A stretch of DNA of 64,000 nt from an uncultured Nitrospiraceae bacterium (GTDB lineage Bacteria; Nitrospirota; Thermodesulfovibrionia; Thermodesulfovibrionales; Dissulfurispiraceae): NCBI GenBank assembly GCA_963705105.1, contig CAVPIW010000012.1:320001-384000 (forward strand), in the 5' to 3' direction. The notes beneath the pieces were generated by a model. The model was not told where the DNA came from. It did not search any database and worked only from the letters and a program-made list of their open reading frames with translations. The number at the start of each line of letters is the position of its first letter. Position 1 is the first letter of the stretch. A program made the position numbers and the translations under genes. Shown piece after piece: positions 1,296 through 52,662 of this stretch.

Positions 1296-1709
1296 ATGGC
1301 CTACGAGGTGCTCGACATATCCGGCGATGCGGGAATACGCTCCTGCGGTGCAGGCTTCGAAGAGGCCCTGGCGGAAGCCGCCGTCGGCATGTTCAGCCTC
1401 ATCACGGATATCGGTCAGGTCCGGGAGGTGCGCTCCATCGACGTGCACGCGTCGGCCGATACGCCTGAGGCCCTCGTCGTCGGTCTCCTGAACGATATGG
1501 TCTTTCACTTCGACACCTACGGTTTCATCGGCAGGAGAGTCGAGATCATCGACCGGGACCGGTCATCCATCAGGGCGAGGGTTTACGGAGAGGAATTCGA
1601 TGCCGAGAGGCATGAGAGCCGCCTCCTCGTCAAGGCTGCGACATTCCATGACATAAGGGTCGCAGATGCCGGTGACCACTGGGAGATTGAAGTCGTCTTC
1701 GACATTTAG
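1296..1709 (+). CDS. Archease (RtcB activator)
   Basis: [13 protein letters not shown]-terminus, VKAATFH, C-terminal VFDI; directly upstream of rtcB. Confidence 0.92.
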
Positions 1710-1720
1710 GAGGTGCTGAG

Positions 1721-3166
1721 ATGGCAACGGAGAAATTGAAGAGAATAGACGCCAGCAGACTGGAGGTCCCGAAGGATTACAAGCCCGGCATGAGAACAAG
1801 GGGCATCATCTATGTCGACAGGAAACTGGAAGAGCTGCTCGAAGCCGGGTCGATCGAACAGGTCGCCAATGTGGCGACCCTGCCGGGCATCGTCGGGCCC
1901 TCTCTCGCAATGCCGGACATACACACCGGGTACGGGTTCCCCATCGGCGGCGTTGCCGCCTTCGACCTCGACGAGGGGATCATATCGCCGGGAGGCGTGG
2001 GATACGACATCAATTGAGGAGTGCGGCTCCTCAGGAGCAACCTCACCCGCGACGAGGTTGTTCCGGGATTGAAGGGCCTCGTGGAGGTCCTCTACAACAC
2101 CATTCCGGCGGGAGTCGGATCAAAGGGAAAAATCCGGATCGACAGGGACGTGCAGAGGCGCCTGCTTGTGCGGGGCGCCCGCTGGGCTGTCGAGGAGGGG
2201 TACGGGTCGCCGGCGGACCTTGACCATACGGAATCGGGCGGCTGTATCGACGGCGCCGACCCGGACGTTGTGAGCGAAAAGGCCTATGAAAGGGGAAGGG
2301 CGCAACAGGGCACTCTCGGGTCGGGGAACCACTTCCTCGAAGTCCAGTATGTCGATGAGATATACGATGAGAAGGCCGCCGATGCCCTCGGGCTGTTTAT
2401 CAACGGTGTGACGGTCATGATCCACTCCGGTTCCCGCGGTTTCGGCCACCAGGTCTGCACCGATTTCCTGGAGGTCATGGAAAGGTCTGTCAGCAAATAC
2501 GGATTCGACCTTCCCGACCGTGAGCTCGCCTGCGCTCCATTCCGGAGCAAAGAGGCTCAGAGCTATCTTGCCGCAATGAGGGCGGCGGCCAATTATGCCT
2601 GGGCGAACAGGCAGTGCCTCATGCACTGGACGAGGGAAGCCCTCATGACCTTCTATAGCCGGTCCCCACGGGATCTCGGCATGCACCTCGTCTATGATGT
2701 GGCGCACAATATCGCGAAAGTTGAGGACCACATCGTCGAAGGGAAAAAGCGCAGTCTGATCGTCCATCGAAAGGGCAGCACCCGTGCATTTCCGCCCGGT
2801 CACCCGGAGCTGCCCGATGCTTACCGGAACACGGGACAGCCGGTCCTTATCCCCGGTGACATGGGCAGGGCTTCTTTCGTCCTCCTCGGCACAGGCCGGG
2901 CGATGGAGGAAACGTTCGGCTCCACCTGCCACGGCGCAGGCAGGGTGATGTCGCGCAACCAGGCGATCAGGCAGGCGAAGGGACGGGCCATCTGGCGTGA
3001 AATGGAGGACAGGGGCATCATCGTGAGGGCCGCGGGCCGGGGCATCCTGGCGGAAGAAATGTCCGAGGCATATAAGGACATCTCCGATGTCGTCGACGTC
3101 GTACACAATGCGGGCATATCGACGAAAGTGGCGAGACTGAGGCCGCTGGGTGTCGTCAAGGGATGA
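1721..3166 (+). CDS. rtcB: RNA ligase RtcB, 481 aa, with in-frame TGA (probable selenocysteine) at codon 99
   Basis: ORFs 1721-2017 and 2021-3166 are in the same frame; [52 protein letters not shown] motifs intact. Confidence 0.93.
2034..2064 (+). promoter_or_regulatory. Candidate bacterial SECIS hairpin
   Basis: GGAGCAACCTC / GAGGTTGTTCC 11-bp stem (one G-U) with 9-nt loop; loop begins 27 nt after the TGA. Confidence 0.55.
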
Positions 3167-3993
3167 GAGACAGGCTGCGGATCGGGAAAATTCCCTATCT
3201 CAATCTTTTCCCCGTCTTTCGCGTGCTTCAGCGGGACTGCGACTGCTCCGCCTACGATTTTATCGAGGGTGTGCCGTCGCAGGTCAACAGGATGCTGAGG
3301 TCGGGTGAGATCGACGTGAGTCCTTCGTCATCCATTGAGTACCTGCGCAACCCCTCCCTGTACGAGATCGTCGAAGGCCATTCGATCAGCTCGAAAGGCC
3401 CGATCGGCAGCATCCTCCTTTTCAGTCGGCGGGACATCGCCGATCTGGGAGGCGTGAACATCACCGTCACCGCTCAGTCGGAGACGTCGATCGGCCTGCT
3501 CGCCGTCGTGCTGACTCAATTTTTCGGAATTGAACCGCCTCTGGAGATTTCTCAAAGACCGGAACGGTCCGATGCCGATGCATTCCTCCTCATCGGAGAC
3601 GACGCCCTCAGACAGAGGCGCATGATTGCGGACACGGGGGAGACGGGGGAGCGGTCCTGCCGGGGGTTGAAGGTCTATGACCTGGGAGAGATATGGTTCG
3701 AACGGACGGGTCTGCCTTTTGTCTTTGCCCTCTGGATCGCCCGGAGGGATGTGACCCGGGAAACGGGACCTGTCCGTGACCTCTATGAAAGATTTCTGGC
3801 GGACATGGAAAGGGTGGGCAGAACAGCCCCCGGTGAATTCGGGTCCCTTGCCGCGGAAGCCCCGCTCAGGGAACATATGGAAGAGTCGGAGATCGTCTCG
3901 TACTGGCGGCAGATCGACTACGGGCTCACCGATGAAAGCAGAAAGGGCCTCAGGCTCTTCAAGGAGTTCCTGGACAGGATCGGGTACCTTTGA
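3163..3993 (+). CDS. mqnA: Chorismate dehydratase MqnA (futalosine menaquinone pathway)
   Basis: IGKIPYLNLFP, LLIGDDAL, YDLGEIW..TGLPFVFALW motifs; ATGA overlap with the rtcB stop. Confidence 0.88.
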   Translation: MRDRLRIGKIPYLNLFPVFRVLQRDCDCSAYDFIEGVPSQVNRMLRSGEIDVSPSSSIEYLRNPSLYEIVEGHSISSKGPIGSILLFSRRDIADLGGVNITVTAQSETSIGLLAVVLTQFFGIEPPLEISQRPERSDADAFLLIGDDALRQRRMIADTGETGERSCRGLKVYDLGEIWFERTGLPFVFALWIARRDVTRETGPVRDLYERFLADMERVGRTAPGEFGSLAAEAPLREHMEESEIVSYWRQIDYGLTDESRKGLRLFKEFLDRIGYL

Positions 3994-4029: not shown

Positions 4030-5107
4030 TTAATTTCTCCTTTCAGCGGTCTCCATGCCGGCGACAGCCTGGGCTGACTGTATGGGGTTGACGGCGATCG
4101 CATCGCGCGCTTTCTGCGCAATCAGGGCATGCATTTGCGTCGTGGGATGCTGGTCGTCCCAGAAGATGGAGCCGCCTGCGTCGAAACCACCGGGAAGAGC
4201 GCTGCAATCGGGGACTCCGAAAAAGACGAGGCAGCCCGACGCCGGGCCCGGCGTCGTGAGTGTGTTTGTAAAACCGAAGACCAGGGGATTCGCCGAGATC
4301 TGCTTCAGCAGAGAATAAATATCGGGATAGTAAATAAACATGTCGGTATTGGCCGACACGAGCTGATTGACAGCCTGGCCCAGCATGAAATTGTGTGCAA
4401 GGGTCAGCTCGGTCATGGCGGCGCCGATGCCGGGACTGGTTGAGTCTATCGCTGCGACGAGCGGTGTTTCGCCCAGATCGGGCAGGTTGATCACCACAAA
4501 ATGACGGGCTCCCATGGAGTAGAGACTCTGGATAGCGCTGACGATGTTTCCGACCGTCACGGCAGGGTTCGGAGGAACGGGAATGCCGGCGGAAATGCCG
4601 GACTGCACGTAGTCGTTTGCACCGGACCACACGACATACAGTGCCGCGGGGATCGGCCACACCATTTGTCATTGCGGCAAAGTCCGACACCTGTCCCAAG
4701 AGGCCCCGCACCGTAATCACGTTGTTCGGAGTCGAGTTGGCGACGCCGGTACCGGCTGAACCATAGGCGAATGAGACACCCTCCTTCTTCGCAGGATCGA
4801 GCGACGGATCGAGGGATGGGCGGATGACGGGAATTCCCATGTCGGCAGCGAGGTATTCCGTCCAGACGGAGCCGTTGCTGAAGCGTCCGGAAAAATAGCG
4901 TGTTTCCGGCGGCATGGGGTACCCTGTCTCATTCAGGCTCTTGGTCAGGTCGTTTCCGATATCGGAGAGGCTGTCGCCGAAAACGATGACCCTGCTGAAG
5001 CCCTGCTGCTGCGGTTTTTTTTCCGAATCTCCGCCGCCTCCGCCTCCGCATGCCGTGAGAAAAGGCAGCAGGAAAATAACAAACAGGATAACGACAGAGG
5101 AACGCAT
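4030..5107 (-). CDS. SGNH/GDSL hydrolase lipoprotein (+1 frameshift near 4648-4651)
   Basis: GGAGG RBS, lipobox FLTAC, FGDSLSD block I, GRFSNG, GAND, FWDDQHPT; removing one G from the 4648-4651 run joins the halves. Confidence 0.82.
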
Positions 5108-5175
5108 CAGTTGCCTCCCGTCGGACCGGGTGACACTCCTCCCGTCTCCCCCTTCATCAAACTCACGCAGTGTGT

Positions 5176-8100
5176 TCATTTTTTGTTTGCTCCCGCTTGA
5201 ATTTATTTCATTTTCCAGGTATGTGCAGACCCGGGCACGTTCATCTTCGATCGCTTCGACGAGTGCTGCCGCCGGATCCAGATTTCCCGCTCTTCCGGCA
5301 GACTCGAGTCTTGCGCAGAGGTCTGCCAGTATGATCGCGCCGAGGCTGGCACTGGCCGATTTCAGGCTGTGGGCGGTCCGGTGGAGCATTTCGGCATCTC
5401 CCTTTGAGAGACCCTCCTTCAATTTCCTCAGGAGGTCGTCGGAACTGCTGAGATACAACGAAATAATCCTGACAAGGACATCGGACGACCTCTTCGATGC
5501 CAGCGCAGCGATGCTGTCGAGCTTTTTCCGGTCCACAGGGGGCGGGGCGCCGGGTACTGCTTTCTTCCCGTTTTCGTTCCCGGTCACATCTGCAGAACAG
5601 AGACCGGATGCAGGACTTCCTCTCTCCTCGCCGGAAGCTTTCGTTGATCTTGCAGGAAGCCATTTTCTCAGCATGCCGCAGAGGTCCTGCTGGGTAAAGG
5701 GCTTGGTCAGGTAGTCATCCATGCCCGTCATGATGCATTTCTCCCTGTCTCCCTTCATCGCGTGGGCCGTGAGCGCGATGATGGGAAGGCGCCGGGCCGT
5801 GACGTTTTGACCGGGTCCGGCGATAGCGCGGGCGTGCTCCTTCTCCCGTATCTTCCTCGTCGCTTCGTAGCCGTCCATGCCCGGCATCTGGCAGTCCATG
5901 AGCACAAGATCGTAGGGGGAACTGAAAACGGCCTCCAGTGCATCCCCTCCGCCGGCCACGACATCGACGTGGCAGCCAAGATTGCCGAGCATGGCCCTGA
6001 CGACCTCCTGATTCACCTCATTATCCTCTGCAAGGAGGATATTTCCGTGCAGATGCGCGGTATGCCCGTTCCCCTCCCGCGTCCCGGTGATGGAGGTGCA
6101 CAGGATGGCACCGCTCTTCATTGACGACAGGAGATGCCCGGCAAGTGCCGAAAGACGCACCGGTTTGGCAATAGCAAGGAAGTGCCCTGTCTCTATGGCC
6201 TCCTGGATAGCGGCATCGGGGGCGAGTGGGGAGAGAAGGACGAGATTGACGCCGGCTATCCCGTTGTCCTTCCTGATTGTCTCGGCAATTCTCACCTTCT
6301 CGGCGAGCAACCGCCGGCTGTCGAAAATCACCGCATGATAGGGCTGGCCGTTCCGTTCGGCAGCCTTGAGCAGCGACACGGCCTGTGTTGCGTCATCGAC
6401 GGTGTCAGGCTGCACCCCCCATCCGTTGAGATAGTATCTGATGACGGAGCAGTTCACGCTCCCGTCGTCGACGATGATGAGACGAAGATCAGCTGTTGGT
6501 AACGGCGCTGACTTGTCGACGCGGTCCGAAGCCGTCCTGCCGAGGGACGACGTGAACCAGAAGGTCGATCCGGTTCCCCGCCCGCTCTCGACTCCTATCT
6601 GGCCGCCCATCATCTCGGCGAGCTGCTTTGCTATGGCGAGCCCGAGGCCGGTTCCCCCATAGCGGCGGCTGACGGAGCCGTCGACCTGGGAAAAGACTTC
6701 GAACACCCTTTCCCGAGCCTCGGGCCTGATGCCGATGCCTGTGTCGGAAACCTCGAAACGGAGGACAATGGAATCCTTGTCCTCCTTGATATTCAGGACC
6801 CGGATGTTCACCTCTCCCTGGTCGGTGAATTTCACGGCATTTCCCACAAGATTGAAGAGGATTTGGCGAATCCTCACGGGATCTCCGCTCATTGTCCGGG
6901 GCACTTCATGAGAAATGCGGCATGCCAGCTCGATTCCCTTGCTGTGGGCCTTCACGGCAAGGGTCTCCGCCACTTCTTCGACCATAGTGATGACGTCGAA
7001 ATCGACCGTCTCCAGTTCGAGCTTGCCTGCTTCGATCTTCGAGAAATCGAGAATGTCATTGATGAGATGAAGAAGGTTTTCTCCGCTCAGTCGCACGTTT
7101 TCGGCATACCTGAATTGGATGTCTGACAGTTGCGTGTTGATGAGCAGTTCCGTCATTCCCATGACGCCGTTGAGGGGGGTCCGGATTTCATGGCTCATGT
7201 TGGCGAGGAACTGGGACTTGGCCTGGTTGGCGGCCTCCGCGGCGTCCTTTGCCCGTTTCAGCTCCTCTTCCATGAATTTCCGCTCCGTGATGTCGACGAA
7301 ACTCTCCAGGAGGGCGGGGCGCCCGTGGAGAGTCAGAGGGACGACGCTCTTGATGACGGGGATTTTCTTGCCCGTCATGTCGAAGAGGATCTTCTCCGAA
7401 TTGTCGATCTCCTGGTCGAGGTCCGTAATCGGGCACCGTCCCCACTCGGCAGGACAGATGTATTCATGGCAGCCGGCGCCGATGATCTCCTCGGGCTTTG
7501 CGCCGATGAGTCCGCAGGCCACGTGGTTGGCGTAGAGTATCGTATGGGATTCGGCATCGATGACGACGATGCCTGTCTGGACTGACTGGAGGATCGTCTT
7601 CAGATAGACTTCGCTCTCTTTGAGCTCCTCGGCGGCCCTCTTGTGTTCCGTGACGCGCATGAAGACATGGAGGGCGCCCTCGACGATCTCCCTGTCCTTC
7701 TCCTCGAAGGGGTGGTGGAAGTGCCTGTCTTCCGTCCTGTTGCCGAAAAGAAGCCCGATCCGCATCTCCGGGTTGAAAGACCAGAGAAAGAAGGGCACAC
7801 CGCTGATCTGTTTCAACGTCTCGGTCAGCGGGTCCGGGGAGCTGCGGGAATTGGCGAAATGGAACTCTTTCAGCGACTGGGGATCGATGTGGAAGGACTT
7901 TTTGTCGCTGATGCCTCCCAGCAATTCACGAACGGTGAGTCTCTGCGACTGATATGAATAATCGAGGACCATGGCCGTATCGACATGAACGGTGTCGAGC
8001 GCTATTTTGAGGAATTTCCTGGTGATCTCGCCGAGAGGGATCTCCATGCTGCCGAGGGGATAGGCCTCACGGATAAGCCTCGCCACAACGGCGCTCCGCC

Positions 8101-8209
8101 GGGCCTCCCTTCGGGCTTTCGTCTGCTCCTCGAGGAGGTGCACCAGCCGTGCGCCCAGATCATTGCACTGCTGGCGATAGAAATCCCTCTCGCGTTCAAT
8201 ATCAGCCAT
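5176..8209 (-). CDS. Hybrid sensor histidine kinase (GAF-like, PAS/PAC, HisKA, HATPase, 2 REC, Hpt)
   Basis: FLANMSHEIRTPLNG, NLVGNAVKFT, DTGIGI, GGTGLGLAI, LMDCQMP, AHSLKSASA; stop inferred at 5176-5178 if the T6 run at 5179-5184 is T5. Confidence 0.88.
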
Positions 8210-52500: not shown

Positions 52501-52587
52501 GGAGGGGTGGCCGAGCGGTTTAAGGCGACGGTCTTGAAAATCGTTGTAGGGGTAACTCTACCGTGGGTTCGAATCCCACCCCCTCCG
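52501..52587 (+). tRNA. tRNA-Ser (anticodon TGA)
   Basis: GGAGGGG/CCCCTCC acceptor stem, CT-TGA-AA loop, long variable arm, GGTTCGAATC, G discriminator, no encoded CCA. Confidence 0.97.
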
Positions 52588-52662
52588 CTCCTTTCCATCG
52601 TGAGGCCATCTATCTTCGTACAATCAGCCTTGCATGAAAAGGCATGTCAATGCCGGAAGGCT

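Follow-up and report, generated by a model that had tools for sequence, protein, structure and literature searches.

A single gene in the stretch analysed here (64,000 nucleotides of an uncultured Nitrospiraceae bacterium, contig CAVPIW010000012.1, positions 320,001 to 384,000; hereafter the window) raises the question of whether an in-frame UGA codon in rtcB, which encodes an RNA ligase, ends translation or is decoded as selenocysteine (Sec). The original prediction held that the UGA is read as Sec. Computational evidence now supports this claim from several sides: the genome carries Sec machinery, the codon alternates with cysteine codons in relatives, selection acts on both sides of the UGA, hairpins specific to the UGA form lie downstream of it, and the codon is present in two assemblies. 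From these comparisons we regard it as very probable that UGA 2015-2017 is decoded as Sec and that the gene encodes a selenocysteine RtcB.

We examined the gene and its predicted product. The region 1721-3166 on the plus strand is a single frame in which TGA 2015-2017, followed by GVRLL, is the sole internal stop; the true stop is TGA 3164-3166. Under translation table 11 the frame appears as two open reading frames (ORFs), 1721-2017 (98 aa) and 2021-3166 (381 aa), while reading through the TGA gives a protein of 481 residues with residue 99 as the predicted Sec. This read-through protein matched PF01139 (RtcB) with 587.7 bits (cut-off 27) over residues 47-481, spanning the TGA, and matched the Pyrococcus horikoshii RtcB chains over their full length (E 1e-180). 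Residue 99 aligns to Cys98 of the P. horikoshii enzyme, and D96, N203/H204, H235, H329 and H404 align to Asp95, Asn202/His203, His234, His329 and His404. Four of the five ligands of the binuclear metal site are therefore identical (D96, H204, H235 and H329) and the fifth, Cys98, is the UGA; the site is complete only when Sec or Cys is inserted at the UGA. The GSTCHGAGR motif of the guanylylation nucleophile His404 is identical and likewise stands at residue 404. Directly upstream lies an intact gene for archease, the RtcB activator partner (1296-1709, plus strand; PF01951, 114.1 bits; NF001617, 103.5 bits, under the curated cut-off of 126). Thus, three statements of the original prediction were borne out: that the TGA is the only break in the frame, that it occupies the invariant metal-bridging Cys position, and that the other catalytic motifs and the archease are intact. 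The NCBIfam RtcB models all scored below their curated cut-offs (NF007153, 169 vs 407; NF038162, the best NCBIfam match, 767.6 vs 1150), and none of the four NCBIfam families matched by the read-through protein is a Sec-specific RtcB model. At E <= 1e-30 the genome contained no second rtcB match.

The residue replaced by the UGA is well characterized in other enzymes. In the part of PMC9745838 available to us, Cys98 of P. horikoshii RtcB is described as bridging metals M1 and M2, its mutation to Ala as abolishing every ligation step, and the residue itself as oxidised to sulfonic acid in one crystal structure. For human RTCB, the accessible text of PMC12263435 describes a need for PYROXD1 to keep the enzyme active against oxidative inactivation.

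The machinery for Sec insertion was found in the genome, which is an estimated 99.4% complete. It comprises selA (C14:125091-126200, where C numbers denote contigs), selB (C7:103824-105683; 362.6 bits against a cut-off of 242), selD (C11:79300-80208), which itself has one in-frame TGA of the Sec type, and a tRNA-Sec with anticodon tca on C6. The window contains no sel genes, as had been noted from the start; those found sit on other contigs. In-frame TGA codons also occur, one in each case and each followed by a SECIS (selenocysteine insertion sequence)-type hairpin, in an fdhA-like gene (C5:161701-162972; GGCC-GGUCU-GGCC), an mvhD-like gene (C5:133504-133872) and a second molybdopterin enzyme (C12:54632-55993, outside the window). 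A fourth molybdopterin match in the genome has an in-frame TAG. The hairpins after these TGA codons are short with G-rich loops, as in GGCC-GGUCU-GGCC, CCCC-GGACU-GGGG and the GGUCC-GUC-GGACC of selD, and the loops begin 17-18 nt past the UGA. Among the 41 nearest genomes (this one included), selD was present in 40, and all 43 selD matches had one in-frame TGA. In this genome and 30 relatives, the SECIS of selD has a 6-bp G+C stem and a triloop, mostly GUC or GGC; the hairpin starts 11 nt past the UGA and takes the conserved form RGGUCC-triloop-GGACCU (C11:79300-80208 and loci L207-L236).

Alternation between TGA and Cys codons at the predicted Sec position was evident in relatives. All 41 nearest genomes contained rtcB, and in 15 of them the gene had one internal TGA. 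Of 30 rtcB loci of relatives, 10 had TGA at the codon, 15 had TGC and 5 had TGT, and the residues on either side were identical. Furthermore, within the class, which we take from named relatives to be Thermodesulfovibrionia (Nitrospirota), rtcB was present in 352 of 390 genomes, and a degenerate DNA pattern for GYDIN-TGA-G occurred in 95 of the 390, with one match for the reversed-pattern control. Of the 264 high-quality genomes 73 have this pattern, and it is represented in 56 of 164 genera and in 15 of 22 families. The exact-codon alternation that the original prediction anticipated is thus present both among the close relatives and across the class. The selA gene was found in 39 of the 41 nearest genomes, including all 15 with a TGA-form rtcB; the two genomes with no selA match (98% and 89% complete) both carry Cys-form rtcB. 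The site was located in 70 of 80 named loci. TGC was the codon in 48 of these, TGT in 19 and TGA in 3, the last all from Nitrospirota; the counts are biased towards Cys forms because one of the search patterns encoded Cys.

Two further observations concern this codon in relatives. Loci L024 and L040 (relatives G036 and G038) have Cys-form (TGT) rtcB genes in which the sequences of two downstream hairpins described below, H1 and H2, are almost intact; since both hairpins are retained, these loci look like recent changes from Sec to Cys. In relative G033, which belongs to the same order, the rtcB of locus L162 is a single frame of 971 residues that contains an intein; the intein begins CLSPGC, ends VVVHN and lies exactly between GYDIN and CGVRLL. 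The intein junction is the codon that is TGA here, and the same split match was seen in several genomes of G033's genus.

The TGA itself recurs in independently studied material. Using assembled contigs of public runs from different studies (contigs rather than raw reads, and one run possibly the window's own source), we found the same TGA in contigs of two runs, with the listed differences lying elsewhere: the X1 record 1 contig covers 1296-2084 and bridges the TGA with 2 differences, at 1500 and 1523, and the X2 record 12 contig covers 1820-2112 and bridges it with 1 difference, at 1824. Two other contigs were set aside, namely a metatranscriptome contig of run X15 (1858-2125) that spans the TGA, in which 2 of 4 differences are unlisted and which is no proof of expression, and contig 21 of run X3, with 14 differences, part of them unlisted. 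Moreover, the coding sequence is conserved before as well as after the TGA. The ratio of nonsynonymous to synonymous substitution (dN/dS; Nei-Gojobori method) among TGA forms had a median of 0.085 for the part before the TGA (88 codons) and 0.062 for the part after it (375 codons), as calculated from 146 of 1072 pairs, with 926 dropped for saturation or register and a dS of about 2. Constraint downstream of the TGA shows no sign of relaxation, and purifying selection there is as strong as upstream.

We then asked what signal could direct recoding. A stretch of 86 nt that starts with the UGA folds into three hairpins, H0, H1 and H2, with a minimum free energy (MFE) of -41.6 kcal/mol (z -3.84; 0 of 200 shuffles fold as well). 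All three are on the plus strand. H0 (2015-2033) contains the UGA, is formed by UGAGGAGU/GCUCCUCA and has an energy of -10.5 kcal/mol. H1 (2029-2068) consists of a basal helix (2029-2032/2065-2068), a bulged A2033, an upper helix (2034-2044/2054-2064) and a 9-nt loop (2045-2053); this loop, ACCCGCGAC, starts with AC and has no G in its first two positions. H2 (2073-2091), a candidate SelB-binding minihelix, has 8 bp and a GUG triloop (2081-2083). In this gene the folding energies of H1 and H2 are -20.6 and -11.3 kcal/mol, respectively. The original prediction had named two hairpins, which fared differently. The 11-bp hairpin at 2034-2064 is in the minimum-energy fold and shows compensatory changes among relatives. 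The hairpin at 2015-2033, said to sequester the UGA, is also in the minimum-energy fold but lacks comparative support: no pair of H0 covaries, and 8 of 51 sequences break G8:N24. H2 and the basal extension of H1 had both been missed. The change at column 24 that breaks H0 is compensated by column 57 of H1; the comparative data support the basal extension, which is therefore preferred over the competing H0. H0 is probably a by-product or a competing fold.

To compare the hairpins among relatives we used an ungapped alignment of 95 TGA-form sequences of the class, 94 of them distinct, and 20 Cys forms of the same class. In the 94 TGA forms 82.8% of H1 cells were paired, and 9 of its 15 pairs had changed on both sides. 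The clearest covariation was at pair 24:57 (CG in 59, GC in 21 and UA in 6 of the 94). Three pairs in the middle of H1 were unpaired in 42-57 of the 94 sequences, and H1 is thus better described as a basal helix plus an apical helix. H2 is better conserved than H1: 97.6% of its cells were paired, 3 pairs had changed on both sides, and the loop was GUN in all 94 TGA forms. Taken jointly, H1 and H2 had 78 doubly changed cells compared to 16.1 +/- 3.3 after shuffling (0 of 500 shuffles reach 78), and 87.9% of cells were paired compared to 40-61% with slid partners. In the Cys forms, by contrast, the proportion of paired cells in the same columns was 63.7% for H1 and 54.4% for H2. Median energies likewise differed between TGA and Cys forms, at -20.6 vs -6.95 kcal/mol for H1 and -11.0 vs -1.5 kcal/mol for H2. 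H1 and H2 are kept, with compensating changes, specifically in TGA forms.

Which of the two hairpins would act as the SECIS depends on how each compares with known elements. The bacterial SECIS (bSECIS) model, as given in the accessible text of PMC13188914, has a loop of 3-9 nt with a G among its first two nucleotides, a stem of 4-16 bp, a distance of 16-37 nt from the UGA to the loop and an MFE of -7.5 or below; the same text states that a subset of bacterial SECIS elements is known to fail the model. H1 fits in that its loop has 9 nt, its stem has 11 bp, its spacing is 27 nt and its energy is -20.6 kcal/mol, and H2 fits in its GUG loop, 8-bp stem and energy (-11.3 kcal/mol). The shape of H2, a short G+C stem with a triloop, is that of the selD SECIS of this genome and its 30 relatives, while H1 differs from it. 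A search of Rfam with 1900-2250 (both strands, E up to 10) gave zero matches and hence no bacterial SECIS family. For a covariance model we took the selD SECIS hairpins from this genome and the 30 relatives. When it was run, with filters off, against 46 TGA-form rtcB stretches, the best E was 0.22, and the 15 weak matches were scattered on both strands and not focused on H1 or H2. This model is too short, and too tied to particular sequence, for the result to have any bearing on H2.

On balance we slightly favour a bipartite recoding signal, modelled as follows. H1, the base of which lies 11 nt past the UGA, would act as a clamp that loops out 40 nt of coding sequence. Because the base of H1 starts at 11 nt and H2 follows 4 nt after H1, folding of H1 would bring H2 to about 15 nt from the UGA and the H2 loop to about 23 nt, where SelB would bind H2. 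The arrangement that we rank below it, and think rather unlikely, is that H1 alone is a non-canonical SECIS and H2 an accessory.

Several points weigh against reading the UGA as Sec, and most of them concern this signal. H1 fails the bSECIS model on the loop G, which is absent here and present in only 38 of the 94 TGA forms; this caveat had been raised in the original prediction and holds in this gene and in 56 of the 94 distinct relatives. H2 fails on spacing, as its loop begins 63 nt past the UGA where 16-37 nt is allowed. The G and U of the H2 loop are also fixed by a Val codon, and the bipartite model rests on geometry and a qualitative likeness to the selD SECIS. The dN/dS values are only rough because dS is saturated and most pairs were dropped. 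Finally, engineered P. horikoshii RtcB with Sec at position 98 (U98) was obtained as a cleaved fragment, according to the part of PMC4150793 available to us, so that Sec cannot simply be assumed harmless at this position.

Among the explanations other than Sec, the one that survives best, though we consider it improbable, is that the UGA is read through as another residue. A near-cognate tRNA could supply Trp, Cys or Arg, or a mischarged tRNA-Sec could supply Cys under selenium scarcity; tRNA-Sec can deliver Cys in other systems, and the misfit of both H1 and H2, each taken alone, to the bSECIS model favours such read-through. However, an enzyme with Trp or Arg in place of this essential metal ligand would be inactive, selA is present in every one of the 15 TGA genomes checked, and the hairpins are kept only in TGA forms, as a SelB-dependent signal predicts. 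Moreover, plain Cys is one mutation away (TGC or TGT), yet the TGA persists in 56 genera.

It is highly improbable that rtcB is instead a split gene, in which ribosomes terminate at the TGA and begin again at GTG 2021 to give two polypeptides that assemble. A GTG does lie two codons past the TGA and a GGAG just before it, but the GGAG abuts the GTG with zero spacer, and most TGA-form relatives have GTC, GTA or GTT for the Val that follows the Gly, so that no start codon is conserved. A split enzyme would also drop the equivalent of Cys98, the residue at which the Ala mutant loses every ligation step (PMC9745838, in the part available to us), and would leave the Sec-specific hairpins unexplained. 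To the remaining explanation, a TGA created by sequencing or assembly error or by a recent nonsense mutation in an rtcB pseudogene, we attach almost no weight. Table 11 does split the gene, public gene calls contain its product only in pieces (98 aa and 381 aa, P0002 and P0187 of the protein collection), and indel-type errors had been noted elsewhere in the window. But the same TGA stands in contigs from both runs and in 95 genomes out of the 390 of the class, dN/dS past the TGA is 0.062, this rtcB is the genome's only one, the archease is intact, and the hairpins specific to the TGA form are conserved with compensation.

With the UGA read as Sec, the genome's own SelA, SelB, tRNA-Sec and SelD would decode it, and the product would be a full-length 481-residue RtcB 3'-phosphate/5'-OH RNA ligase that is partnered with the archease encoded upstream. 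A selenolate in place of a thiolate would then bridge the two catalytic metal ions. The benefit may be that Sec makes oxidation of the metal ligand reversible, the equivalent cysteine being oxidation-sensitive, or that it retunes metal binding.

The same codon is TGA in rtcB genes of other phyla. Of 401 genomes sampled in Thermodesulfobacteriota (the phylum, by tree-tool label, of a Desulfobaccales genome), 327 contained rtcB. By hand count, one TGA was present in 40 of the first 150 rtcB matches listed, and all 20 loci fetched have their TGA at this very codon. For the phylum to which an Aminicenantes genome belongs, the pattern occurred in 12 of 401 genomes with 0 control matches, and all 12 instances were inside rtcB at the same codon. 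By our own reading, 27 of 32 genes from these other phyla have a canonical, fdhF-like hairpin of the type GCGCUCA-GGUC-UGAGC about 18 nt past the TGA. The remaining genes have either close variants, with the same stem and a GGGC, GGGU, GAGU or GGAU loop, or other G+C stems (ACC-GGUC-UGGU and GCUCGCC-AGUUC-GGCGAGC). Genes of the class studied here encode RSNL in this position and lack any hairpin of this kind.

We compared the Sec and Cys forms in FastTree trees of 166 rows (wide) and 83 rows (within the class, enriched for hand-picked TGA forms). In the 166-row tree 51 TGA forms of the class shared a clade with 23 Cys forms of the class, and 20 Thermodesulfobacteriota TGA forms grouped elsewhere, in a clade that includes 5 Cys forms; the smallest one uniting both TGA groups also contained 63 Cys forms. 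In the 83-row tree at least 9 changes between Sec and Cys are needed, 6 of them forced by well-supported branches. The trees and the differing signals thus point to at least two origins and repeated reversion to Cys, which suggests, as far as sequence comparison goes, that Sec-RtcB arose independently in this lineage and in other phyla. The presence of Sec at one site in separate clades with different signals argues for a real selective advantage. More tentatively, and with somewhat less confidence than we would give to an even proposition, the H1 clamp together with the selD-like GU-triloop H2 may represent a new class of bacterial SECIS that arose independently of the GGUC-loop SECIS. In that case an enzyme without redox chemistry would have acquired Sec at its Mn-bridging position on at least two occasions.

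In the literature searched we found no natural Sec-RtcB; the supplementary tables of selenoproteome papers were outside that search. The available text of a 2026 review of prokaryotic selenoproteomes (PMC13188914), which puts the selenoprotein families known in prokaryotes at more than 110, has no mention of RtcB, ligase, splicing, RNA repair or PF01139. Likewise, ligase, RtcB, RNA repair and splicing are unmentioned in the text of PMC9312934 and of preprint 10.1101/2022.07.06.499078, and ligase, splicing and RNA repair in that of PMC12013277 (deep-Sep). The only Sec-RtcB that we found in print is the engineered P. horikoshii U98 protein, as presented in the accessible part of PMC4150793. What is new here is this lineage's non-canonical, possibly bipartite recoding signal and its apparently independent origin.

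This rtcB is cut in two by gene callers. A collection of 5.8 billion proteins contained 7270 short (53-172 aa) RtcB N-terminal homologues, and 111 of the best 120 end at GYDIN. Among the best 120 near-length homologues, 117 had Cys at the site and 0 had U, although the way in which the collection stores U is uncertain; the other 3 were two C-terminal halves and one with no motif match. SECIS-based predictors would also miss the two-hairpin signal because it departs from the standard SECIS model. If the UGA is indeed read as Sec, selenium would enter RNA repair as well as ligation of the tRNA type, Sec serving as a ligand to two metals in a non-redox reaction, and RtcB would be a widespread selenium enzyme. 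The equivalent cysteine is the enzyme's known weak point, and natural Sec forms would offer a ready-made experiment on selenium as its remedy.

Other features of the window are as follows. Downstream of rtcB lies a menaquinone-biosynthesis gene (3163-3993; PF02621). On the minus strand, 4030-4665 is an ORF for the C-terminal part of a GDSL lipase (PF00657), which overlaps a 1388-residue ORF (4043-8209) in another frame; the latter reads as a hybrid histidine kinase, then a lipoprotein-type GDSL N-terminus and then arginine-rich nonsense. The overlap within 4030-8209 has the appearance of a frameshift within the lipase gene, or else of an indel error. A tRNA-Ser (anticodon tga, 52501-52588) is the sole tRNA in the window.

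Compared with known systems, the gene stands between Cys-type RtcB and Sec-containing metalloenzymes. It shares four metal ligands and the His404 nucleophile with Cys-type RtcB (P. horikoshii PH1602, PDB 1uc2/4dwq/4dwr/7lfq; Thermus thermophilus TTHA1785, 2epg; human RTCB), but whereas all 9 distinct solved sequences matched have a sense codon at the site, here it is UGA. The intein-containing RtcB of NF038162 uses the same junction, as seen in relative G033, and the gene here has no intein. Sec serves as a catalytic metal ligand in formate dehydrogenase H (Sec-Mo) and [NiFeSe] hydrogenase (Sec-Ni), in which UGA is read by SelB with an in-frame SECIS. Those two are redox catalysts, whereas RtcB, a ligase dependent on GTP and Mn, works by nucleotidyl transfer, and its chemistry is not redox. 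The Sec-RtcB genes of other phyla use the same UGA codon; they carry one short hairpin, GCGCUCA-GGUC-UGAGC(G), where the gene here has the coding sequence for RSNL, and it has two other hairpins instead. Finally, the engineered P. horikoshii U98 enzyme has Sec at the same residue, made, according to the available part of PMC4150793, by way of UAG and an engineered EF-Tu, whereas here the Sec would be natural and under purifying selection.

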